A stretch of DNA of 59,311 bases from contig JASJQH010000008.1 of assembly GCA_040143965.1 (NCBI GenBank), positions 1 through 59,311 on the forward strand, in the 5' to 3' direction. Of this stretch, positions 66 through 47,295 are shown in pieces. A program made the translations under genes and the position numbers. Each line of letters begins with the position of its first letter. Positions within the stretch are counted from its first letter, which is position 1. The notes beneath the pieces are model-generated. The model had not been told where the DNA came from. It searched no databases and saw nothing but the letters and a program-made list of their open reading frames with translations. The DNA comes from Basidiobolus ranarum (Eukaryota).

Positions 66-3000
66 TTATCGGTAGTTGAAGTAATTTTCATGGTTTGGGT
101 TGGAGTAGTCGCGAGCAGAGACGGGTCCTTGTGGGTAAGGGGACAAACCATGCATAGATTGTGGGGCAGGAGAAACGGAGCGACCACGAATTCCTGGTGA
201 AAGATATGGATCCATAGCATGAGTGGAAAGTGGTGCCATGCTAGTGTAGACAGAAGCATTATCGGGTGCCCGAGATTTAGACCGGCTGCGGTAGCTTTCG
301 TGAGTACGATTCGAGTGGCTGGAGCCCTTAGATTCATGAGATACATGAGTACCAACTTCCCATAATTCTTGTTCATAGTCACTCCATTTCTTCACTGGAA
401 CCGAGGCAGGATCAAATCTCTCTTCGGTAGTAACGTGAGCAATGTTGCCTTTCTCTCCTACAACCACACGAGTATTACCCCATGAGAAATCATCGAAATG
501 CCAGAAAGAGTAGACGGGAAGGATGAAACTGAAGATAGGAAGGGATAACAAATAAACGATCATCCAACCGATGTGTTGCCACTGACGTTTGATCAAGAAG
601 ATAAAGATTTGGAAACCGTAGATAGCGCAAAGCATAATCGCTGAAATCAATGGGAACGAGGAAGGATCAGTAATGACCATGTACAAAAGGTATCCCAAAT
701 AGAAGCACTGAACAGGCATGATAATGGTAGAAAGCAGATCAACGAAGACGACGAAACGCATAGAGAAACAACAGAAACCGCATAGACGTGGAAGGTACAA
801 CAATTCGGCTAAATTGTGGATAGTGGAGTTAATCCAACGACGACGTTGAGAGAGCAATACAGACCATTCATCAGGGGCGTTCGTTTGACATTTGGCATCT
901 GGAGTAAAGGTCATCTTGTTGTAATTGAAGTGCTTCAACATTAAGGTGGTAAGGTAACGATCCTCACCAAGGGATAGCAAATTCTTCTTGTGCAGTGTGT
1001 CGACTTTGTTTTCTGAATACTCTTCAATAATAACATTGGCAATCAAGAGAGGTTGATTCTTGATGGGAGTACGGAAACGATACATACAGAAACAACCGGG
1101 TAAGCAGGTAACCGATCCGAATAAAGACTCAAAGGCTTTGTTCAAATGATGGGAAATGAAATATTCGTAAACCTGGATCATCGTAATGTACGAGGCCTTT
1201 TCGTTCAAAAGTTCAGTTTCACCACAAAGACCCATAATTTTGGTATCGTTTAACATGCACGAGATCATTCTGTTGAGCGAGTCAGGCATGACAATTGTAT
1301 CGGCATCCACCATTAAAACGTACTCATAGAAGAATGGATCAACACCGATGACGTTCTTGATTTGATGGTACATCTCAAGTTCGAGTGGATTCATGTCAGA
1401 ATTGAAATGAACCTTGTTGAAGAATTGCATCAGAATAAGCTGTGAATCACGCTTGCCTCTATTTCCTGGTCTGGAACGCTCTGAGGGCTTGCCAATCTTC
1501 ACTACGACAATGTATGGGACTACATGTCCTGAGCACTCGTAAAGGCCGGTGTAAACCTTGCCCATATTCAGTTGCTGGTTGCCTTCTCCAAGAGCCTTGT
1601 AAACCAATGGGTCTGGTTCAACATTTGGATCAGCACCAAGAATATCCAAAACAATCATAGGAGTAGGCTTGTCGTTACCACCACCAATAATCATGCCATC
1701 AGCAACAACAAAGAGGAGTTTACGTTTGTCGTCATATTTCAAAACGGCAAGGGAATCTATGGTTCTCTTGAGAGATTCTTCACCTTCAGTATAACAAGGA
1801 ACTTGTAATACCACAAATTTGTCGTGATCTTCGGGCTCACGCAATGTACCCAGCTGCAATGCAGCCAAGAATTTGAACAGCATGATGGCGGTCAAAAAGA
1901 TTGTGGCGGCCAGTAAAATGGAATTTGAGAACTGGCATTGGGGTGAATTACGAGTATCCACAACACCGGTATAGAATAGATTACGAAGGCAAGTCTTCAT
2001 TTTGCTTTTCATTTCCGGGTTAGTCCGATACAAATCGTTGAACCTTGCTGTTATATCTTCACCACGATTGTATTGGAAGAGGCTCACAAGCGCATCATCC
2101 AAGAAGTTCAGGGCATTATCAGCAACCGGACCTCTATCTTGGTAATCAGGAGGATTTACAATATATTTCGTAGTATATGGAGTCAAATCGTAAACATTAT
2201 TATCAATTATTGCTATGAGATTTTCGGTAGACTGCAATCCCTTGCTACGAACAGACTTCGTGCTGATCGCCATATGACCTTTAGCGTGCTTCTTGCGCAA
2301 AATAGTCATCACATTATTAGTGTAGAAATCGTTAGTAGTATAGAGATTACCAATAGTAGAGAACCGATAATCGTGGTAACGGGAATTGGGATCCTGTGTG
2401 TAGTTGAATAAATTGACGGCTGGATCAATAGGCGCATTTGCTCCCTCACACAACATGTTTACTTGAACTGGGAAAAGGTTACTAGCATCTTGACCAGCAT
2501 ACCTCTTCATATCAGCAAAACTCACAGTGTGGTGAACGAAATCCTTGAACGAGAAAACTTCTCCACGAATAGCCACATACGGATTCTTCTGATTATCGTA
2601 ACTTTGAAGTTCACCGGAGGAATAAACATATTGTCTTGGGCAAAGAATCTGTCCGAAGAACATCAAGAAGAACACGACAATACCGCAAAAGAATAGAATA
2701 AGAATGCATAGAGCGGTTTTTTCACGCCAAGCCATTCTGATATCTGGGCGCTTCATTTTACCACATGAACTCAATGTGAAAGTAGGAATCCACCAAGTCA
2801 GTGACCAAGTACAACAGACCCAATGCTTACGTTGCTTGGATACTGGTTCCTTTTCTTCAAGAGGTAAACTTACTTCAGCCTTCGATATTTCTTGGGCTTT
2901 CATAGTAGACTGAGGGGTAAAAATTTCCGAGGTCATAGCAGACTGATTTTCTGGGCGCTCAAAGTAGTCATCGTCACTATAAAATGAGCGAGTATCAGCA

Positions 3001-5394
3001 CTAGTGGCATAAGATTGAGTGTCCGGCGAAGAATGGGACATAAAGGATTGTAGTGGAGCGGCCATAACAGCAGAAGGAATAGCAATCTCCCCAGGGTGAT
3101 TAGGAGCAACAGATTCGACTTCCTTCTTACGTTTTTTAGAATCGGTTTCCGAAAGACGTAGGTTATCTTCAAGATCTCTCCAAGCTTCAAATCCAAGATA
3201 CACCTTGGTGGCACCGACAGCCATTTCATTTTCATTCCATCCAAAGATAGTGCATGTGGTTTGACACTTTTGCTTTGGATCCCGAGTTTGATCCAAACCC
3301 ATGGGCTCGATAACCATAGCATAACGTTCCAAGAACTCATCATGAGTCAAGGAGGTCGTATAATCAATTTGGCGACGTTTGGCGATTTCAGCAAGTCCCA
3401 TGTATCGAACCTGTTGACTTACTTTACGCGAGTCAAACTGATCAGGATTCTGTGTGTCATTGGGTTTAACACATAGAACAAACCAGGGAACAGTATCTTG
3501 AAGTGTTTCCAAAAGTTCATCCAAAGCACCCTGCAATTGAGTAGTAATACTGGCTACTTTCTTCACATCTTTCACCGACTTAGTACGAGGACGGCGCATA
3601 GATGGTTGTCTGGTAGGAATGGCAGGCTGTTGTGCAGCAACAATAGTAGCCTCGTTTCTGGGATGACTTTCATACGCTACGGTTTTATCGGTGAATAATC
3701 CAGCAATGAAAGGATTACTGGTTGAAGCTACATCTGAACCACCACGGAAAAGACCGATGAAATCCGAACCAATAGTATCACCATTCTTCTCCAAGAACTC
3801 ATCAATCTGATAAGCGACTTGCCCAGCGAAATGCTGAATAGCGAAATTGCCAGGGGAGTTTCTTGGAGGTGGATGGAAGTTGCTGTGAGATGAATGATGT
3901 TTTCTGATAGTTTCCAAGAGAGTCTCGCTACTGGTTTCAGTTTGAGTACGATTGGCTTTTCTGTCCATCAGGGCAATTATACCAGAGCTTGGTTTCATGA
4001 GCAAATCCAAGCATGGTGAGTTATCGAAGTAGAGCACATCAGGGATAGCAATACCTTGCTCACGATACTCTTCGTTGAAAGTTTCGAAAATATGGTGGTT
4101 AATGAAATTATGAATGCGTTCATCGGTGAAATTGACACAAAACTGCTCAAATCCATTGACTTCAAAGGTTTGAAACCCGGGCATATCCACAAAACCAATG
4201 AAATTGGTTTGTGTTTCAGAACAAAGCTTGGTATTGATGAATTCTACCATCCAGCTGAACAAGAGCGAATAAAGTGACTTTGATAAACTGTCACGTTGTA
4301 CTTCGGCTTTACTGGCGTTAAGGAATGTGGTGCACACTTCTTTACGGACCAAAATGGATTTGTAGGTTAAAACGTTCAACAGGTCCGAGGCGTTAACTCC
4401 AAGGAATTCTGCTACAGTTATCAAAACGTCTTCATTCTTGATGGTGGCGGCTTCATTGGGGCGATTTGGATGATCCACAAAGGTAATATTCCCTAAATGA
4501 AGAATGGCGGCCAAGAGACGGAAGATTTGGCTCTGGTATTTTTTGTTGAATCCAAGAGACTTCATTGCTGTACGTAGCTCATTGAAGATAGCAGTGTCTT
4601 GAGCGCTGTGTCGGGAACTGCCACTAAGATATGCATTGGTGTCTGATAACTTTAGGTGAGTTCTCTCCTCTTCTGAAACACCAGAGAGAAGATAATAAAA
4701 TATATGGAAATTGTCACCCTTGCCGTATGGACATGCTACTCTGGATTTTTCCAATAGATAGTCAAGGATTCTAGCACCAATAATCCTTCCACGCTCGTTA
4801 AATTGGATTTCAGTGTAATTACCATATCTGGATGCGTTGTTATTATGTATGGTTTGGGCGTTACCAAAGGCTTCCAAGATGCTAGTTGCGCTGATGATTT
4901 GGCCCATTATGTGAGTGTCTTTTTTGGAGACCTCTCTCAATGCTGTCAACATTTGAAGTCCGGCGTTTTTAGTAAATGACTTACCACTGCCAGTTTCACC
5001 ACTATGCAAGAAAAGAGTTTGGTTTAAAAGGAGGTTGTTTCAACGCCATGTGCAATATAACTTACCTGAAAACAACCGACTGGTCGAAGCCAGTTCTTCT
5101 CATATCCAAGTAGGCATTGCTAATGATATCAAAGATGTGAGGAGGCAGTATTTGACGTTGTCCAGAAATATCCTTATAGTCGCTGAGATATCTCTGAAGG
5201 AAAGTCTCATTGTAACAGTTCAAAGACTTGTATGGGTTCAAAGATACTAGAGTACGAGTTCCAATTCTAGTATAAATGCTATCTTGTTGATAAAAGTCCC
5301 GGAGAGCGGAGGTCACTTCATCCTCAGTAAATGAGGATAAGTTGATGAGGTTTTGGCTATCCTCGGATACGCCAAGTGTTTTTCTACTACCCAT
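66..5394 (-). CDS. Class V chitin synthase with N-terminal myosin motor-like domain (exons 5394-5066, 5001-66)
   Basis: Myosin head with P-loop SGETGSGKS and NNNASRYG; cytochrome b5-like segments; chitin synthase motifs GNRGKRDSQ, LGEDRYLT, QRRRW, WHFDDFSWGNTR. Intron GTAAGT...TAG joins ORF 5062-5394 in frame to ORF 66-5009. Confidence 0.95.
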
Positions 5395-7022
5395 AGTAGA
5401 AGGAATCTAATATTTACGTAATTCTGGGTTACAATGACCTAGTTATGTATTCGGACAGGAGAAAAAGATATAAAAAAGTAAAAGAGGGCCTCTACACAGG
5501 AGTAAGGAAGATGGAGAGGAAGTTAGAAATATAAGAAACTCAAGTGGAGTAGCTTGAAGAAGCACCAACAAGAAGATGAAAGAAAGAACAGATTAGGGAA
5601 TCAAGCAATCAGAATTAACATTGGCGGTGCAATTTAAGAACAGAGCATCCTACCATAATAGAAAAAAAACTATAAATAACATGGCACCAATTAATTGACA
5701 AATGACATCGACGCAAGGATATCACCAAACGGTGAGGAATGATTACAGGCAGGAAAGGGATGCCCATATATGGATATACCCATGAGTACAAATTTCCAAT
5801 CATTATGCTTGGTGGCATCTATTGTGTGATTGATGGAGAGTGTGGAATATATTAACCTTAATCCATTCAGAGCCACTGCAGTTACTAGGCAACGCTGAAG
5901 CTAAATTGCCCCTAAATTATCCCATTTAGCTGAATATTGCTAAATAACCAACCAATCTATTTCGAAACACCATGGTTTCCATATTGGTTTCCATATTAGC
6001 TGCGACAAAGTAAATGCCATTTAAATGCCGGGGGAATAGGTAACCTCATCACAGCCAATAGTCGATTCTCGCATTAATACTTTTTTGTTTGATCCATTAA
6101 TTAAGTAAGTGATTGGCCCAGACGCCGACAGCCCCAAAGATGGATATGGGGATTGCTCATTAGTCTCAGCTTTGCATAGATGATGAGAAAATGGGCAAAA
6201 TTAAATGAAATAAAACCTCGCTTTAGTCGGTATTTTAATCTAACATTGCCTGCATTTCAGTATTTCACTACTGTTGCTGTAGTTTAATCTAGTACAAAGG
6301 GATCTAAATCGGATCGTGGCTAACAATTTCAATTTATACCTTGATTTGTACTTTGAGATAGTTTATTGTGGATAGTCAGTCCAATCAGTGGTTAGGAGTG
6401 GGGTATGTCTCATTTTTTTATATCACTTAACGCCGCCAGGTTCCGGTACTATAAACACGACAATATGGCTGGATCGCTCACCTGGATCGTCCACTATACA
6501 TTTATCCGTATAATCCGGTGTAATCAGATAGAACATTTCCATTTGGTTTGTCTAGTAACGAAGTCTCATCGATACTTAGTAATAATGATAATAACAATAA
6601 CATGCCAACTGATACCAGCAATCAGATGTGCCAACTAATACCGGTAATAACAATATGGGTGATATCGACAGTGCTGGTTCAATTGGAAAGCGTACATTTT
6701 TAATATTAGTCGATTGCAGTGTTGTAGTGTTTATGGATGGCGCCCCTATGTTGTGCTAGTACCTTAAAGGGAAAGTGCTGGTTGTAATTGTAAGATATGA
6801 CTGTGTCCCCATATCTGGTTCTGTATGTTCATGTGTTTATTAATGCTATGGAGATAATGCAAAACTAAAATCGTAATGGGTCTTACATCATTAATTTGAA
6901 AAGCTGGAGTTCTTCAAGACTTGATATTGACCAGCAAACGTGAAACACTGCAAAAAGGGTCCAAGCATAACTATGCAAGTTAATCTCTACTAATAGGCTA
7001 CTTAGCCTAAGCGTTTGACTAA

Positions 7023-12440: not shown

Positions 12441-14957
12441 ATGCTGCCTAAAAACTCTTCCCTTTCTCTGATATCTACAGCAATACACACTCCAATATTT
12501 CGCTCAGGTGGAGGTATACAGTTCTATTTCGCAAGGACCCTACGTCGACCGGTTCGTGTATTTGAAACTGGTTGCCAAAGCGTCACCACTTTTCAAAAAA
12601 GACTAAACTCTCAGGTTGTAAAAAATTCCTGGTCTGTATATAGTGAGAGACTGAAGAACCCTGATAAAACCACTATCAAATTACCCGAGCACTTGGACTT
12701 TTTAAAGCTTGTACTACGCAGCGCTGAGAGTGGATCTGAACGTCGTCACAAGGGCACTGAAATTATAGAGTCGATTGAAAAAAGTGGGTATCAATTAAGT
12801 ACTTTGGAACAATACAAAGTGGTTCTATCGTTTTATGCTTCAACTGGACAGTTAGACAAAGTAGAACCGTTACTCAGCCGGATAAAAAGCTTAGATCTAG
12901 AATTAACACCGACTTTTTGTAACGAGCTAGTAAATACAATCTCTCAAGCTAACCTTCAGCAAGGGTTTGAGCTGTGTTGGAAACTATCTTCCCTAAATAT
13001 AACTCCGGATCTTGACACATATTCCATCTTAATCAAAGGGTGTAGAAAACATAACGACGTTAAACGCTTAGAACTTGTTTATCAAGAAATTAAAAGGAAA
13101 GGCTTGGCGATGAATAAAGGAATAAGTATTTCCTTGATCAGTGGGTTTTCTCTACTTTCCAAACCTGAGCTTGCATTTTTAGTATATACTGAAGTAGACC
13201 AAGTAAATCGACCAACTGACAAGATGACCTTTACGCATTTAATTCAGGCGTTGATCAAGGCATCCATGACCGACCGAGTTTTGCAGGTTCATCAGGATAT
13301 GAGAGCATTGGGTATAAAAGTAGATGTCTCATTCTTCAACACTCTGATCAACACATGTCTACGCTCCAACGATCATAAGGGGGCGATTTCTTTGTTTGAA
13401 GGGATGGCCCATGCCGGAGTTACTCCCGATGTTGTAACCTACAATACCTTAATTTCAGCATTTGCGAAACATCGGGATTCGCAATCTGCGTTACGCTTTT
13501 TCCATGACATGTCAAGTCGTAACATCAGGGGAGACGTTGTTACCTATTCGATTTTAATTCGGTGTTTTGGTTCTAACTTGGACATACCAAATGTATCGAA
13601 ACTCTATCAGGAAATGAAGAAATTCCATATCCGCCCGAACTTAATTACTTTCACTTCGTTGATTAGCGCTTACAGTCGTGTTGGTAAACTTGAGTTAATC
13701 GAGCAAACATATCAGGATTTGGTCAAGTCGAAGCTCCGCCCCGATGCCATCCTGTATACCTCTTTAATACACGCATTTTCCAAGAGTGGAAAACTTTCTC
13801 TGGCGAGCAGGCTATTTGAAGAGATGAAGGCTCGAGGACTCCAGCCAGACAACATTGTCGTTACTAAAATGATAGAGGGCTATATTCGTGTTTCTAAACT
13901 GGAGCAAGCTCAGGCAGTATATGACTCCATGCTAGTTGAAAATAAGGTTGTCCCGGATCTGCAGACAAAGACCACCCTTATTAAAGGGTATCTCGATCAT
14001 CGGCAATTTGACAAAGCTGAAGCACTGTTCAGATCTATCAAAGCGCCGGACACCACATTGTATAATATCATGATTCGTGGCTACACCAATATCTTGGATT
14101 TCAATGAGTCAACTAGACTTTATTCTCAGATGATCAAGTCAGACGCCGCAAAGCCCGATATTATAACCATGACAATTCTGATCAAAGGTTTCATGCAACG
14201 CGGACGGTATACTGAGGCGTTGAGGGTTTACGAGGATATGAAACACGAAAAAACAATTAGGCCTGACCTGACAGTATTTACGACATTGATCTCTGGTTTG
14301 TCAAAGTGTAGCCAAATACAGAGTGCGAAACAAGTATTCAGCGACATGAAGACATTCAATCTACGTCCAGATACCCATGTAATCAGCGCTCTGTTGGATA
14401 TGTATATTAAGCACAAACATTTCTCTGAGGCCAAAGAAACTCTTTTGCAAGCAAGTCAATACAAGATCACCCCCGACCTGTGCTTGTTGACGAATACAAT
14501 GGATTATTATTTAAGAATTCAGGATCACGCTAACGTTGTAAAGACTTGGGATAAAGCCCAAAAAGAGTTCCTTGCATCTTCCAAAACCTCCAAATATGAA
14601 AATTTGAACACCTCAATCTCTGTACTACTTGACTCGTATGGTCGCTATTCAGACCTTCCTAGACTCAAAAAAGTCTGGGTCGATCTTGAAGCTAAATACC
14701 CTTTAGATGAAAACAACTACAACTCATATGTGGAAGCGCTTTGTAGACACCAACAGTTCAAGCAAGCTACATGCGTTGTCTATAATATGGCCAATGCTAG
14801 CCTTAAGACATACTTGACCATTCTTGACCCATTAATCAGAAACTCACGTTGGAGTGAAGTCTCCACTATAGCAGACAAAATCCAAATCCAAAATCCCGAG
14901 CTTCTTGATAAGTTGGGGGTAGAATTTGGGGAGAAATTGACTCCATTTTGCCGATAA
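12441..14957 (+). CDS. Pentatricopeptide repeat (PPR) protein, probably mitochondrial, intronless
   Basis: 838-aa ORF with more than 10 tandem 35-aa units (PDVVTYNTLISAFAK, PNLITFTSLISAYSR, PDAILYTSLIHAFSK); Ser/Arg-rich N-terminus. Confidence 0.93.
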   Translation: MLPKNSSLSLISTAIHTPIFRSGGGIQFYFARTLRRPVRVFETGCQSVTTFQKRLNSQVVKNSWSVYSERLKNPDKTTIKLPEHLDFLKLVLRSAESGSERRHKGTEIIESIEKSGYQLSTLEQYKVVLSFYASTGQLDKVEPLLSRIKSLDLELTPTFCNELVNTISQANLQQGFELCWKLSSLNITPDLDTYSILIKGCRKHNDVKRLELVYQEIKRKGLAMNKGISISLISGFSLLSKPELAFLVYTEVDQVNRPTDKMTFTHLIQALIKASMTDRVLQVHQDMRALGIKVDVSFFNTLINTCLRSNDHKGAISLFEGMAHAGVTPDVVTYNTLISAFAKHRDSQSALRFFHDMSSRNIRGDVVTYSILIRCFGSNLDIPNVSKLYQEMKKFHIRPNLITFTSLISAYSRVGKLELIEQTYQDLVKSKLRPDAILYTSLIHAFSKSGKLSLASRLFEEMKARGLQPDNIVVTKMIEGYIRVSKLEQAQAVYDSMLVENKVVPDLQTKTTLIKGYLDHRQFDKAEALFRSIKAPDTTLYNIMIRGYTNILDFNESTRLYSQMIKSDAAKPDIITMTILIKGFMQRGRYTEALRVYEDMKHEKTIRPDLTVFTTLISGLSKCSQIQSAKQVFSDMKTFNLRPDTHVISALLDMYIKHKHFSEAKETLLQASQYKITPDLCLLTNTMDYYLRIQDHANVVKTWDKAQKEFLASSKTSKYENLNTSISVLLDSYGRYSDLPRLKKVWVDLEAKYPLDENNYNSYVEALCRHQQFKQATCVVYNMANASLKTYLTILDPLIRNSRWSEVSTIADKIQIQNPELLDKLGVEFGEKLTPFCR

Positions 14958-15696: not shown

Positions 15697-16023
15697 AGTG
15701 TTTGCGAGTTTAACAAATATCTTTTACTGACTAAGTTGTCGTAACCCTCCAAATGTTAAAAAAAGACTTATTTAAAAATATTCTCGGTCACATTCATTAT
15801 TGACAGCATTGTCAATGCATGGATTGTGCCTTCATTTGGAAGAATCGAAATATGATGGAGACCAAGACCCGAAAAGAATCAGCTATTCGTATGAAGGGTA
15901 CCCCCTGGATCGTAACCAATCATTGCTGTCGGGGTGAAAGAAATGGAATTAAATCTATCAATGAATTGCGGTGGGAATTTTCCTTCTCTTTTCTTTATTC
16001 CCTGACAGGTTGCTCTAGTAAAA

Positions 16024-16712
16024 ATGTAAGTCTGGAATCAATCCGTTTATTTCCACATACAGCCATCCTCAAACGACTCTGTTCCTCTCACTTTAGGGTT
16101 TCTTTGAGCAGTCAGAAGCGTTTGGCCGCTAGTGTTCTCAAGTGCGGTAAGAGAAAGGTCTGGATTGATCCTAATGAAGTCAGCGAAATCGGCAACGCCA
16201 ACTCTCGTAAGTGAATTATTAACGGTCGTCACTTTAGTGCATTATCTAATTGCTTCCTCTCAGGCCAAAACATTCGTAAGCTCATCAAGGATGGTCTTAT
16301 TATCAAGAAGCCTAATGTTGTTCACTCTCGTTTCAGAGTTCGTGAGAAGCTTGCCGCTAAGCGTAAGGGACGTCACACTGGTACCGGTAAGCGCAGAGGT
16401 ACTGCCGAGGCCCGTATGCCTACCCAAGTTCTCTGGATGCGTCGTCAACGTGTCTTGCGTCGTATGTTGAGAAAGTATCGTGAGGCTGGCAAGATCGACA
16501 AGCACTTGTATCACTCCCTTTACATGAAATCTAAAGGTAATGTTTTCAAGAACAAGCGTGTCTTGATGGAATTCATCCACAAGGCCAAGGCTGAGAAGCT
16601 CAGAGCCAAGCTTATTGCTGACCAAGCCGAGGCTCATCGTCTCAAGTCCAAGGCTGCTCGTGAACGTCGTGCTGAGCGCATCCAAGCCAAGAAGGAGTCT
16701 CTTCTCGCTTAA
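16024..16712 (+). CDS. RPL19: 60S ribosomal protein L19 (eL19); start codon split AT|G by intron 1
   Basis: [54 protein letters not shown]-like..[17 protein letters not shown]; introns 16026-16096 and about 16207-16263. Confidence 0.97.
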
Positions 16713-19608: not shown

Positions 19609-19869
19609 TTATTTGTTCTTAGTCTGACGATAAGAGAAACGCTTTCTGGTATGAGAGAATTCTCCAAGTTTATGGCCGACCATTTCTTCTGTTACTTTAA
19701 CGGGTAGGAAATCTTTTCCATTGTGCACCAAGAATTTGACACCTACGAAGGAGGGAAGGATAGTGCATGCGCGAGCATGAGTCTTGATAGGAACGTTAGT
19801 GGATAAAGCTTCACGGAGGTTAGGGAAGTTGACAAAGAAAGGGCCTTTCCAGGCAGCGCGACCACCCAT
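19609..19869 (-). CDS. RSM19: Mitochondrial ribosomal protein uS19m
   Basis: [42 protein letters not shown]. Confidence 0.95.
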
Positions 19870-20305
19870 ATTACACTACTGATGATTGACAAGAGTAAGA
19901 GTGAATCAAGGCAAGAAGTTATCTTTGAGTCTTTCTGAGCAAAATCTAAAAAATTTTCGTAACATAAAATTCACGGATTTATTAAATGAATCCAACAAAG
20001 CACTCCGGTTGGCCCATAACTAGCGCAATCATTCCCCTAGGAAATAGCGAGGATTTTGACAGCGGGCATACTGTTTTCATTTCTTTGGTTTATATTTCAG
20101 TATTTCTGAGTGTGATATATGTAATAAAGCAGACATATTTATGGACAAACATTTAGTGCAGATGCATATTTATTTTACTAATGTTATGGTGTGTTATGAA
20201 CTTTGTATACGAGAAGAACAAATGGATATCGATTTTCTAAAGAAAATATCGATACAGAATTTGGGATTAAGAGTAATTGTAAGGTGAAGTGCAGAATACA
20301 ATCAC

Positions 20306-36349: not shown

Positions 36350-36905
36350 ATGGTAAGTAATGATTTTCCACAATGGTGGTGCAATGGATGGATGGATGCA
36401 TATCTCCCCAGATTCGATAACTAACTCTCGCTTATTATTGTAGTCTCTCGTCGTTCCTGATAAGAACCAGTTCCAGCACATTATCCGTCTTCTTAACACC
36501 AACATCGAAGGTAGAACCAAGGTCGTTTTCGCCTTGACTGCTATCAAGGGTGTTGGTAGACGTTACTCTACCATGGTATGCAAGAAGGCCGATATTGACC
36601 TTACTAAGCGCGCTGGTGAATTAACCAACGAAGAATTGGAACGTATCGTTACTATCATCCAAAACCCCCTTCAATACAAGATCCCCAAATGGTTCCTTAA
36701 CAGACAAAAGGATATCGTTGACGGCAAGTATACCCAAGTCTTGGCTAACGGTCTTGATAACAAGTTCCGTGAAGATTTGGAACGTATGAAGAAGATCCGC
36801 GCTCATCGTGGTCTTCGTCACTACTGGGGTCTCCGTGTCCGCGGTCAACATACCAAGACCACTGGTAGAAGAGGAAGAACCGTTGGTGTCTCCAAGAAGA
36901 AATAA
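36350..36905 (+). CDS. RPS18: 40S ribosomal protein S18 (uS13); intron directly after the ATG
   Basis: [66 protein letters not shown]; intron 36353-36443. Confidence 0.97.
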
Positions 36906-44107: not shown

Positions 44108-45022
44108 ATGACTGCTACCAATATGAACCAAGGTGTCGCTGAGGGTGAAGTTAGTGATGTGTTTGACGCATTCATTGATTCTAAGTATGTGTCGGAGCCA
44201 CAAAACCCGGATTTGAGTAATGCTGATTTGTTTCGCTTATACTTTGGAAGTGAGTTGACCAGTCAACTTCCACCAAACAGTCAAATTGCTCCATCCTTGA
44301 GTAATTTAAAGACCGAATCTACTGATATTGATATGCTTCTCGGCAATCTTCTTGGCTCTGAACCAACACAACAATTCGGAGTAGCAGAGTCTACACTATT
44401 GTATGGTGCACCAAACTTGATGCACTCTACTCCGCCAGCTGCAATTACTCCAGCTCCTGCTGTAAACCCCAAAAATACCACCACTTCTTTTACTCCATCC
44501 TCTCCTACTACATCCCCCCTTCCTATCGCTCCATCTCCTCCCAAAATTGTTCACCGTACTCCATCAGCTGAGTTAGAGGCTGAGCTTGACCCTGCCAACC
44601 CCAATTTTCAAAATCTTAGTTCAAAAGAGCGTAGACAGCTACGTAACAAGATATCTGCTAGAAACTTTCGTGTCAGAAGAAAGGAATATATCTCTACACT
44701 GGAGCTACAAGTTCAGCAACATCAAAATGAGATCAAATCCATTCGTGACTCCTTGTCCAAAGCTGAGGATGAAAACAAACGTTTACGCCTTGAGCTAGAG
44801 GCAATGCGTCAGAAAACGGATGCCCACGTCCCCAACAATGAAGCGGACTCTCCTGTAGCTATGGAAATTGAGGTGAAGGAAGAAAAGAATGTAAATTCAT
44901 CGTTATTCAAACTTAAAACTGGAGTTAGCTCTCTTTCCAGCACTGAGCCTTTTAACAAGGATATTCCAAACTCTTCCTGTGCCTCTCCACGGTGGCAAGA
45001 TAGCCGAGTTATCGTTCGTTAA
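44108..45022 (+). CDS. bZIP transcription factor, intronless
   Basis: LSSKERRQLRNKISARNFRVRRKEYISTLE followed by a heptad zipper; Pro/Ser-rich N-terminal region. Confidence 0.92.
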   Translation: MTATNMNQGVAEGEVSDVFDAFIDSKYVSEPQNPDLSNADLFRLYFGSELTSQLPPNSQIAPSLSNLKTESTDIDMLLGNLLGSEPTQQFGVAESTLLYGAPNLMHSTPPAAITPAPAVNPKNTTTSFTPSSPTTSPLPIAPSPPKIVHRTPSAELEAELDPANPNFQNLSSKERRQLRNKISARNFRVRRKEYISTLELQVQQHQNEIKSIRDSLSKAEDENKRLRLELEAMRQKTDAHVPNNEADSPVAMEIEVKEEKNVNSSLFKLKTGVSSLSSTEPFNKDIPNSSCASPRWQDSRVIVR

Positions 45023-45610
45023 ATTCACTTCCCTGTATATTACTCAACTCAAAAAACATATTTCTCCATAATGTTTATCTAAAAATCACCCTACCTCAGA
45101 TGTATCCTTCTTTCACGCTTGATTATTTGTCGAGTTAGTGTCACCATCGGACCATTCAGCCCTTCCACTTGTATATAGCATCCAAAGAGAGATGGATAAT
45201 CTCTCTTCACCTGTTACACCCCCTTTGGTTCTGTGGTCCTCTACAAATTGATTCCCCAACTATTGGTACATCAAAAATTCGTCACTGGTTCCAAGTTTTC
45301 GTTACTTTTTGAACTGCTCCTCATTAAAAACCTTGAAACTTCACATCTGCGAACATATCTGTATTCTATTGCATATGTTGCATCCAAGTCACCAATTACT
45401 TTCAACAAATGATATTAACGTTTATGATTATTCCGATACAAATGATAATCATTATATGCGAGTAATATTTGTGTTCAATCAATTTATTTATAAACTATTT
45501 ATATCTGGACAGAGGATTTACAACCTAATATTAAGTAATTCAAATCAAAATTAGTGAAACATGTTTAAGAAAGTTCGAAAGAATTTTCAAGAAAATCAAA
45601 ATCCATAATA

Positions 45611-45686
45611 TCAGATAGGAGCGAAAGATAGATAAACAAACATAGTACTTAGTAAGAGTACTTCAGTTGAACTATGTAATCATCAT
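45611..45686 (-). ncRNA. snR60: Box C/D snoRNA, SNORD80/snR60 family, copy 5
   Basis: Minus strand ATGATGA (C) ..ACATAGTTCAA-CTGA (D') ..TCTTTCGCTCCTAT-CTGA (D); guides complementary to LSU rRNA UGAACUAUG and AUAGGGGCGAAAGA. Confidence 0.9.
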
Positions 45687-45863
45687 AATGGATATACGAA
45701 TAATAGATAATGTTCTTTTGACTTACCATGAGATTATGGGGTTTTTACATGAGCTAGAAATAGCGAGTATTCGGTTAAGTTATGGTACATCTGAGAATAA
45801 ATAATTATTAGTTATGGATCATCATAGAGAATATGGCGATTTCATGTAGAAAAATTCTTCGGT

Positions 45864-45939
45864 TCAGATAGGAGCGAAAGATAGATAAACAAACATGGTA
45901 CTTAGTAAGAGTACTTCAGTTGAACTATGTTATCATCAC
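45864..45939 (-). ncRNA. snR60: Box C/D snoRNA, SNORD80/snR60 family, copy 4
   Basis: GTGATGA C box; same D'/D boxes and guides. Confidence 0.9.
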
Positions 45940-46115
45940 ATTGATAGAAATTTGTATCATGGAGAGGGGATAGTCAAGTAACATTTGCTTACATTTTACA
46001 TTCGACACTCGAAGCTCAGCCAAGGTAAATTGTTCAGTGTTACAATCTATGAATACTATAGAATTGTTAGAAAATAGAATAAATAAATATCAAGAAAATC
46101 TTTCAAAAAAAGTCG

Positions 46116-46191
46116 TCAGATAGGAGCGAAAGATAGATAAACAAACATAGTGCTTAGTAAGAGCACTTCAGTTGAACTATGTAATCATCAT
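46116..46191 (-). ncRNA. snR60: Box C/D snoRNA, SNORD80/snR60 family, copy 3
   Basis: Same boxes and guides; internal hairpin variant AGTGCT..AGCACT. Confidence 0.9.
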
Positions 46192-46355
46192 AATAACTAA
46201 AGAAATGAACAACTATGTGAATATTTGACTTACATTCATGCTCAGTTCAATATATCCCACTCCGAAAGGAGAATGATGGTTATATCTATGAATTCTTTAC
46301 AAAGAGTTAGTGATCCGGTTGTGAAGATAAGAAGTTGAAAATTCATGTAAAAGTA

Positions 46356-46431
46356 TCAGATAGGAGCGAAAGATAGATAAACAAACATAGTGCTTAGTAA
46401 GAGCACTTCAGTTGAACTATGTAATCATCAT
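46356..46431 (-). ncRNA. snR60: Box C/D snoRNA, SNORD80/snR60 family, copy 2
   Basis: Identical to copy 3 across the 76-nt core. Confidence 0.9.
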
Positions 46432-46603
46432 AATAATGATAAAAAAGAATTAATATTGTAATCATTTAACCTACATTTGAACTGCTGAGTTGAAAATATC
46501 TCTCTCGGAAGGGTGGTTCCCTTGAGGTTTTTACCTAAGAAATCTTTATAAAATGTTAGTGATACGGTTTCGAAGATGGAAATTTAAAAATCTTGTAAAA
46601 GTA

Positions 46604-46679
46604 TCAGATAGGAGCGAAAGATAGATAAACAAACATGGTGCTTAGTAAGAGCACTTCAGTTGAACTATGTAATCATCAT
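46604..46679 (-). ncRNA. snR60: Box C/D snoRNA, SNORD80/snR60 family, copy 1
   Basis: Same boxes and guides; lies in the first intron (46726-46535). Confidence 0.9.
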
Positions 46680-46776
46680 AATAACTATAAAAAAATCGAT
46701 ATTCAATGGAATTTGTTAATACTCACCATTGTTTGGTAGAAGGGATTGGAAGAAACTTGAAAGAATATAGACTTAA

Positions 46777-46784
46777 TATTTATA
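46777..46784 (-). promoter_or_regulatory. Putative TATA box of the snoRNA host gene
   Basis: TATAAATA on the minus strand, about 25 nt upstream of a pyrimidine-rich tract (TTTCTTCC) that precedes the first donor. Confidence 0.5.
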
Positions 46785-47295
46785 CATCTCCCAACTAACC
46801 TTTCGTCTTTAACCAAAAAAAAAAAATGGAAAAAAGGTGGATTAATACTGGGGGATCCCTGCTTGTACATCCCTGTTTAAGTGAAAATGATGGAGGAATC
46901 CAAATAAGTAAATTAAATAATATCTCATAAATCAGTATTTCACATGAGTAATCGAAAGTGGATATTTGTTTGAAGATGAATGTGGTTAAGTCAATTACTA
47001 TTGATGATGGAAAATAGAAAATATTCAACTTTTAAAATAGAAAATAGAATTTTATATCTAAGAACGTAACTAATATTCTATTGAGCATTCATTGTTTGTT
47101 TACCTTTGACAGTAGGAAAATTATCGAGACCCAAAGGTTCTTGTCATTCCTACCATTTCAATATACGAAAAGGGTTCACGAGATAGTTATTGTACTTTTT
47201 AAGATCCATCGACTGACAACAAAGCGATTAACTCATGGTGAACTTCTCTGGTATTTCTTGAGATGAATATTTCCTCTTCAAACTTTCAATGATTA

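Follow-up and report, generated by a model that had tools for sequence, protein, structure and literature searches.

Within a 59,311-base stretch of contig JASJQH010000008.1 from Basidiobolus ranarum (hereafter the window), we examined an array on the minus strand at 45470-46790, where a repeat search of the window found five near-identical units that make up one repeat family (n = 5). Each unit has a core of 76 nucleotides (nt) which runs from box C to box D of a small nucleolar RNA (snoRNA) belonging to the box C/D class, and the start-to-start spacing of the units is 253, 252, 240 and 248 nt. An earlier note on this DNA, made from the letters alone, had described five 76-nt units with these start positions, periods and motifs, and both the repeat search and our alignment reproduced them.

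Five copies of one box C/D snoRNA

At gathering thresholds, an Rfam scan of the whole window returned exactly five matches, all on the minus strand and all to RF00309 (snosnR60_Z15), a box C/D family which comprises snR60/Z15/Z230/Z193/J17 (also given as snR60/Z15/U80) and has a gathering score of 41 bits. All five copies matched the full model (positions 1-98) at 43.6-51.2 bits, with E-values between 8.4e-06 and 4.8e-04 when the entire window is set against 4227 families: copy 1 (core 46679-46604; Rfam match 46596-46689; 49.0 bits), with box C AUGAUGA and box D CUGA; copy 2 (core 46431-46356; match 46348-46441; 47.2 bits); copy 3 (core 46191-46116; match 46108-46201; 51.2 bits), whose core is identical to that of copy 2; copy 4 (core 45939-45864; match 45856-45947; 43.6 bits), with box C GUGAUGA and an A-U variant of the internal hairpin; and copy 5 (core 45686-45611; match 45599-45695; 50.3 bits), which has the same hairpin variant. 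This covariance-model search had been proposed in the earlier note as a check, and each of the five copies came out above the gathering score. Thus the five units are copies of a box C/D snoRNA of the snR60/Z15/SNORD80 family. A permissive Rfam scan (E ≤ 1) found no other RNA family in the 59-kb window, and no transfer RNA was found in it.

Read on the minus strand, each core begins with box C (AUGAUGA in four copies and GUGAUGA in one, in agreement with the RTGATGA motif recorded previously), which is followed by a stretch of 13 nt with CAUAGUUCAA at its end, the D' box CUGA, an internal hairpin, a U-rich stretch, the D guide UCUUUCGCUCCUAU and box D. The hairpin joins D' to the C' region through six base pairs (bp; AGUGCU and AGCACU around a 7-nt loop), and the U-rich stretch AUGUUUGUUUAUCUA is read here as a degenerate C' region, with AUGUUUG as the C' box. 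In the core alignment 71 of the 76 columns are invariant, and so are the internal and the terminal CUGA. The five variable columns (1, 9, 28, 40 and 43) fall outside both guides, the D' box and the D box; column 1 is A or G, both of which are permitted (R) in box C. Columns 28 and 40 pair within the hairpin, as G-C in copies 1-3 and as A-U in copies 4-5, a compensatory change. At columns 28 and 43 all four combinations are present among the five copies, a pattern which would need recurrent mutation or exchange between copies. The terminal stems are weak save in copy 5, the sole copy with a clean external stem (UCCAU/AUGGA). A terminator scan of the array picked up only the internal snoRNA hairpin (in three copies) and one opposite-strand hairpin in exon 2 of the predicted host transcript described below, with the proviso that bacterial promoter and terminator models such as those used are not applicable to a eukaryotic window.

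Identity between copies is 93-100% in the core, against 55-72% in the upstream flanks, 56-80% in the downstream flanks and 48-63% in the exons, and in a whole-unit alignment the sequence conservation between units ends at box C and box D. Divergence of their flanks makes Tandem Repeats Finder miss the two downstream units and report only the three upstream ones (46108-46694; period 248; 2.4 copies; 84% matches). This profile bears on the idea that the units are decaying or silent snoRNA-derived repeats, i.e., pseudogenes. Multi-copy snoRNA families elsewhere include many unexpressed copies, according to sections of PMC12309372, and the Rfam scores of the present copies are just 2.6-10 bits over the threshold; yet the boxes (with either permitted base at column 1) and both guides are intact and invariant in five of five copies while the flanks have drifted to 55-80%, the opposite of decay, which makes pseudogenes a scarcely credible explanation.

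Clustered regularly interspaced short palindromic repeats (CRISPR) were also considered and rejected. The features looked for were a prokaryotic context, repeats of ~23-50 nt and unrelated spacers, whereas the setting of the array, with spliceosomal introns and genes for cytosolic ribosomal proteins, TRAPPC9 and a myosin-chitin synthase, is eukaryotic, the unit is 76 nt long and the inter-copy spacers (164-177 nt) are diverged copies of one another; the dismissal of CRISPR already voiced for this DNA thus holds.

Guides and their predicted ribosomal RNA targets

Counting five positions from each box picks the second A of GAAC and the second G of GGGG, i.e., the D'+5 target is the A in UGAACUAUG and the D+5 target is the G in AUAGGGGCGAAAGA, which are 91 nt apart in eukaryotic large-subunit (LSU) ribosomal RNA (rRNA). 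A pattern was built from the complements of both guides and scanned over a prokaryotic genome collection for contaminant rRNA. It matched at least 48 contigs, and in 46 of the 46 parsed from among these (with 12-nt flanks) the gap between the two target sites was 81 nt, which corresponds to an A-G spacing of 91 nt. All three of the contigs tested proved to be eukaryotic LSU rRNA (RF02543). In each of these three LSU fragments, RNAduplex gave GUGAACUAUGC as the best site for the D' guide (9 bp at -11.5 kcal/mol) and AUAGGGGCGAAAGA as that for the D guide (14 bp including one G-U, at -21.6 kcal/mol), and each target motif was found once per fragment (n = 3). Both the two target positions and the type of the guide pair (SNORD80/snR60, with sites as in yeast Am817 and Gm908) had been predicted beforehand, and the best duplexes in these LSU fragments of other eukaryotes, at an A and a G 91 nt apart, agree with the prediction.

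The same pair of sites is on record for other members of the family: yeast snR60 targets 25S-817 (D') and 25S-908 (D), the intronic CD48 of Neurospora crassa targets 26S Am797 (D') and Gm888 (D), and human U80 (with U77) is assigned to Am1521 and Gm1612, as given in passages of PMC5824354, PMC2780460 and PMC3511168 respectively. The 91-nt spacing found here equals that of yeast 817/908, N. crassa 797/888 and human 1521/1612, on the same nucleotides and with the same D'/D assignment. One departure concerns the D' guide: all five copies carry an A before CAUAG, where most of the metagenome relatives among the matches listed carry a G. Because A replaces G at this position, the predicted D' duplex is shortened to 9 bp; the host organism's own rRNA might compensate for the change.

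Prompted by a report, available as an abstract, that SNORD80 methylates GAS5, we also tested whether the guides could target their own host exons. This idea gained no support and was dropped: the best duplexes (-8.0 and -13.1 kcal/mol) were equalled by 23 of 200 and 15 of 200 shuffles respectively.

The target scan had a by-product of its own: at least 48 contigs labelled as bacterial isolates or metagenome-assembled genomes carry the eukaryotic LSU target pair at the exact eukaryotic spacing, and one of the three tested (all RF02543) also holds 5.8S rRNA. These contigs in prokaryotic assemblies look like eukaryotic contamination.

A predicted non-coding host transcript

The array is flanked by a bZIP gene, whose end is at 45022, and by an Aladin-like WD40 gene, which extends from ~47923 to beyond 49000. 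Both neighbours are on the plus strand, opposite to the array, which is therefore a stand-alone unit. Splice signals and exons can be laid out along this unit as follows, in the direction of the minus strand. A TATAAATA element (46777-46784), by sequence reading the putative promoter of the host transcript, lies 50 nt upstream of the end of exon 1 and is followed by a pyrimidine-rich stretch. Predicted exon 1 (46727-46765, with an assumed start at 46765) is rich in pyrimidines, and its closing ATG abuts the donor of intron 1 (46535-46726; 192 nt; GTGAGT ... CACTAAC ... TAG). Exon 2 (46475-46534; 60 nt) separates this intron from intron 2 (46286-46474; 189 nt; GTAGGT ... CACTAAC ... TAG), and exon 3 (46234-46285; 52 nt), which holds the stop codon of a 22-codon open reading frame (ORF) at its start, leads to intron 3 (46047-46233; 187 nt; GTAAGT ... 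TTCTAAC ... TAG). Exon 4 (45993-46046; 54 nt) lies between introns 3 and 4, exon 5 (45727-45790; 64 nt) between introns 4 (45791-45992; 202 nt; GTAAGC ... AACTAAT ... CAG) and 5 (45525-45726; 202 nt; GTAAGT ... CACTAAT ... TAG), and the last exon (45470-45524, with an assumed end at 45470) contains an AATAAA, read from sequence, at 45488-45483. At the sequence level, the earlier proposal of one copy per GT..CTAAY..YAG intron, with exons of 52-64 nt between them, was recovered down to the exact junctions.

In all five units GTRRGY lies 40-53 nt before box C and CTAAY lies 17-26 nt before YAG. From the end of box D, the branch A is 48, 49, 49, 56 and 60 nt away and the acceptor 69, 70, 69, 73 and 86 nt away in introns 1 to 5 respectively. 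For intronic C/D snoRNAs, passages of PMC8162545 and PMC1821038 give a placement rule of ~70-80 nt ahead of the acceptor and ~50 nt ahead of the branch point, and the placement of box D in the five predicted introns fits this published optimum. A composite splice signal (a donor 36-62 nt upstream together with CTAAY-N(10-26)-YAG 35-100 nt downstream) was present at five of five copies, compared with 0.22% of 16,832 anchors set arbitrarily along the two strands of the window. Moreover, few columns outside the core are conserved in the whole-unit alignment, and GT and CTAA belong to them. Local coding introns offer a reference: the two which are anchored by Pfam matches (n = 2), of 64 nt in a myosin-chitin synthase gene and 57 nt in RPL19, both start with GTAAGT, and that of RPL19 has CTAAT 14 nt before CAG; a frame-joining screen of the window gave seven intron candidates, five of them unverified, and two of these five look plausible (53 and 66 nt), one with CTAAC. 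Judged by length, the snoRNA introns would roughly equal an ordinary short intron extended by the snoRNA with its spacing.

The same signals bear on another route of processing, in which one polycistronic precursor would be cut by an endonuclease of the ribonuclease III (RNase III)/Rnt1/Pac1 type and trimmed by exonucleases, with the splice-like signals being incidental or secondary. Polycistronic snoRNA clusters processed without splicing are common in yeasts and plants, which lends this route some plausibility, as does a metagenome contig (L159, described below) with five copies in a single RPS23 intron, from which splicing alone cannot release each copy. A mixed mode of introns and RNase III is described for S. 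pombe in parts of PMC12508059. On the other hand, every one of the five units retains donor, branch site and acceptor at the canonical spacing from box D despite a flank identity of 55-60%, and the inter-copy spacers (n = 4) show neither excess structure, with folding not above shuffles (z -0.84 to +1.18), nor an AGNN tetraloop hairpin. We therefore regard endonucleolytic release as unlikely.

Joined at the predicted junctions, the exons amount to 324 nt with the assumed ends at 46765 and 45470 and have stops in all frames. Their first ATG, the last three bases of exon 1 (46727-46729, minus strand), opens 22 codons, and the unspliced region holds no open frame above 54 codons. The non-coding nature that had been claimed for the host agrees with these stops and with an ORF of 22 codons from the first ATG. 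A first ATG directly before the first donor is a common layout in ribosomal protein genes. The array might instead sit in alternative introns of the 3' untranslated region (3' UTR) of a protein-coding gene, or between coding exons that went unrecognised. That the ATG falls exactly at the end of exon 1 and continues into a 22-codon ORF would suit such a host, as would a stop-to-stop frame of 78 amino acids (aa) at 46795-47031, just upstream on the same strand; there is also the precedent of the Drosophila DmSnR60 cluster, whose host was first annotated as the non-coding dUhg6 and later as the mfl 3' UTR (in passages of PMC1821038). However, the 78-aa frame is of low complexity and has no Pfam match, the next gene upstream (Aladin-like WD40) is on the opposite strand, no frame remains open across the joined exons, and the TATAAATA element directly precedes exon 1. 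A coding host is thus quite unlikely.

The position of the TATAAATA element also speaks to the question whether the units are independent genes of a plain tandem family, each equipped with a promoter and a terminator of its own. The snR60 gene of S. cerevisiae is independently transcribed, and tandem arrays of the snR60 family in other layouts exist (the metagenome loci L158 and L052, below). Here, by contrast, inspection by eye of the 40-53 nt that precede each box C showed no shared TATA-like element, and these flanks start with the donor motif instead; the only TATAAATA is the one ahead of exon 1; and independent genes would leave the fixed spacing from box D to the branch site unexplained. 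Five separately transcribed genes are therefore very unlikely.

We accordingly favour, with a probability of roughly 77%, a stand-alone minus-strand unit of ~1.3 kb (~46765 to 45470) in which six short non-coding exons alternate with five introns of ~190-200 nt, each with one snR60-type snoRNA. From sequence we infer its transcription, splicing, processing, methylation and any dosage benefit along the following lines. RNA polymerase II would transcribe the host unit from a single promoter, and core snoRNA-protein complex components would assemble on each C/D motif during splicing; the excised lariats would be debranched and trimmed by exonucleases to a protein-protected RNA of 76-90 nt, such that one transcript could give rise to up to five identical guides. 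The spliced exon RNA would be a by-product, and, with its 22-codon ORF ending three exon junctions before the transcript end, a likely target of nonsense-mediated decay. Each guide RNA would direct fibrillarin to 2'-O-methylate two LSU rRNA residues: the D' guide is predicted to select the A equivalent to yeast 25S A817 (9-bp duplex), and the D guide the G equivalent to G908 (14 bp, one G-U). Tandem duplication of an entire intron-plus-exon module probably gave rise to the units, of which the upstream three are presumably the younger ones. Since core identity is 93-100% as opposed to 55-80% in the flanks, selection, probably with gene conversion, would have held the mature RNA near-constant while the remainder drifted.

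Several observations weigh against this reading: i) at the level of the snoRNA, the C' box is degenerate, the Rfam alignments contain non-standard terminal-stem pairs in four of five copies, and single-sequence folding of the whole snoRNA is not better than that of shuffles (z -1.56 to +0.92), as is usual for C/D snoRNAs; the hairpin covariation, though suggestive, is not significant either (one compensatory pair in four distinct sequences, with 83 of 500 shuffles reaching the observed score), and it was dropped as structural proof; ii) the LSU rRNA in the target test was that of other eukaryotes, taken from contaminant contigs in bacterial assemblies, rather than the host organism's own, the D' duplex has only 9 bp, and the A817-type guide may be weak; iii) because the units are duplicates of one another, the coincidence of splice signals at five of five copies does not amount to five independent events, the donors GTAGGT and GTAAGC differ from the GTAAGT/GTGAGT of local coding introns, and the sample of local introns is tiny (two Pfam-anchored and five unverified candidates).

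Comparable arrays and the surrounding genes

The earlier note implied that an array of this kind is unusual, which was overstated, as the Drosophila DmSnR60 genes (four in tandem, one per intron) and the mammalian SNORD115/116 arrays have the same layout. DmSnR60 a-d occupy introns 6-9 of mfl/Nop60B, one per intron and ~70 nt before the acceptor, and their expression and predicted methylations were shown in the fly (passages of PMC1821038). The fly and fungal arrays have in common i) tandem copies of one C/D snoRNA, one per intron at ~70 nt from the acceptor; ii) a guide which selects the G equivalent to yeast Gm908 and the human U80 site; and iii) copies derived from duplication of intron-exon modules. 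They differ in copy number (four in the fly and five here), in the second guide, which selects A1092 (the yeast snR84 site) in DmSnR60 but an A817-type site here, and in the host, which is the 3' UTR of a protein-coding gene in the fly, while no coding gene is visible on the array strand here. Because one host is an animal and the other an early-diverging fungus, the two snR60 arrays are presumably independent in origin. The present array is thus a fungal counterpart of the DmSnR60 arrangement, with a host that lacks coding capacity, and its layout is not new.

The host had also been likened to GAS5. SNORD80 is indeed encoded in a GAS5 intron, as the earlier note says and as parts of PMC11848286 state, and N. 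crassa has non-coding snoRNA hosts (clusters I-V, with ORFs of 159-267 bp); most of its snoRNA genes are single-copy (sections of PMC2780460). With mammalian UHG/GAS5 and the N. crassa clusters the array shares short exons, small ORFs and one C/D snoRNA per intron; with GAS5 it further shares a snoRNA of the same family (SNORD80), and with CD48 of N. crassa the intronic location and the same two targets. In UHG/GAS5 and the N. crassa clusters, however, successive introns carry different snoRNAs, whereas the same one is found in all five here. The likeness to GAS5 thus stands for the non-coding exons and the single snoRNA per intron and fails for the mixed snoRNA set; in the strict sense of a heterogeneous host the array is not GAS5-like, and its layout is of the homogeneous DmSnR60/SNORD116 type.

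Repeated intron-exon units in a non-coding transcript, with one and the same C/D snoRNA per intron, also characterise the SNORD115/116, SNORD113/114 and rat RBII-36 arrays (in passages of PMC8162545), and signs of exchange between copies (here at columns 28/43) are a further feature in common with arrays of the SNORD116 type. Arrays of the SNORD115/116 type are described, in the same partial sources, as having tens of copies, as imprinted and largely brain-specific, and as lacking a canonical rRNA target, whereas the present array has five copies of a canonical rRNA guide; moreover, the intron position of SNORD116 is atypical (PMC8162545, in part), while that of the present copies is typical. 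Yeast snR60, N. crassa CD48, human SNORD80/U80 and plant U80 belong to the same Rfam family and have the same two LSU targets, an A selected by D' and a G selected by D at a distance of 91 nt, but are described as single genes, compared with five copies here. According to sections of 'The fungal snoRNAome' (PMC5824354), families mostly have one member per species, with several paralogs in some species; the terms 'tandem', Basidiobolus, Zoopagomycota and Entomophthoromycotina are absent from the main text of that paper. A literature search for Basidiobolus snoRNAs found no paper on the snoRNAs of this fungal lineage.

We surveyed snR60/U80 copies in metagenomes with a degenerate pattern, which gave at least 123 loci and at least 130 exact matches; 80 loci were taken with 2-kb flanks. 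Among the matches listed, fuzzy counting of the D guide together with box D assigned one copy to 114 loci, two to seven, four to one (L158) and five to one (L159); in three of the seven double loci the second match is without a D' guide and may be due to chance, and L075 and L076 are overlapping stretches of one contig. In L159 (1125 nt), a single RPS23 intron holds five copies at intervals of 93-145 nt (301-770, minus strand of the locus), and the exon upstream of this intron matches Pfam Ribosom_S12_S23 (E 2e-23); two of the copies have changes in the guides. L158 (1718 nt) and L052 (2488 nt) carry identical snoRNAs, and the downstream flank of L158 resembles that after the first copy of L052 almost base for base. 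Together they hold at least five copies with identical guides, spaced 364-406 nt apart and each with a 9-bp terminal stem, in an AT-rich eukaryote and upstream of RPL5 exons (Pfam Ribosomal_L5e, profile positions 48-162). These loci resemble the array described here in that the same snoRNA family has been tandemly amplified four to five times. They differ in host architecture: all copies of L159 are in one ribosomal protein intron and those of L158/L052 within or beside a ribosomal protein gene, whereas here there is one copy per intron of a non-coding host. None of the matches listed was related to the array outside the guides (the best alignment score from D' box to D guide was 3.0), an absence which means little. 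Amplification of snR60/U80, the sole family surveyed, is thus not rare.

It is a rather improbable idea that the snR60/U80 guide is unusually prone to, or in need of, independent tandem amplification across unrelated eukaryotes and host architectures, with the fungal copies homogenised by gene conversion as at SNORD116. If true, it would imply a special dosage requirement for modifying the A817/G908 region in LSU domain II. The array opens no new kind of system. It does represent a locus that would be missed by ORF-based annotation and would add a correctly placed non-coding gene with five snoRNA genes, and it illustrates, on a small scale, duplicated intron-exon modules that have preserved nothing but the mature RNA and the splice signals. 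Moreover, the placement of C/D snoRNAs ~50 nt before the branch point, which was worked out in vertebrates and seen in flies, appears at the sequence level to fit an early-diverging fungus as well.

Elsewhere, the window encodes a pentatricopeptide repeat (PPR) protein, TRAPPC9/Trs120, an ornithine decarboxylase and ribosomal proteins; several of its genes are split by short introns, and its GC content is 33-43%. The ornithine decarboxylase shares 71% identity with a homologue of Basidiobolus ranarum and 61% with the one of B. meristosporus; further homologues, at 36-47% identity, are mostly from other early-diverging fungi (Glomeromycotina, Mucorales, chytrids), with a few from animals. By these identities, the source is a fungus close to Basidiobolus. 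Three genes for cytosolic ribosomal proteins are present, namely L19e (15804-16709, plus strand), S15 (Pfam Ribosomal_S19; 19612-19875, minus strand) and S18 (Pfam Ribosomal_S13; 36444-36902, plus strand), and Rfam found no snoRNA in the introns of these three genes. At 66-5406 the minus strand encodes a chitin synthase that carries a myosin motor at its N-terminus as well as a cytochrome b5 domain; a single 64-nt intron interrupts it behind roughly the first 90 profile positions of the myosin head. The PPR protein (12441-14957, plus strand) is an intron-less product of 838 aa with PPR_2 matches in nine stretches (E 3e-99), and seemed unusually plant-like for a fungus.

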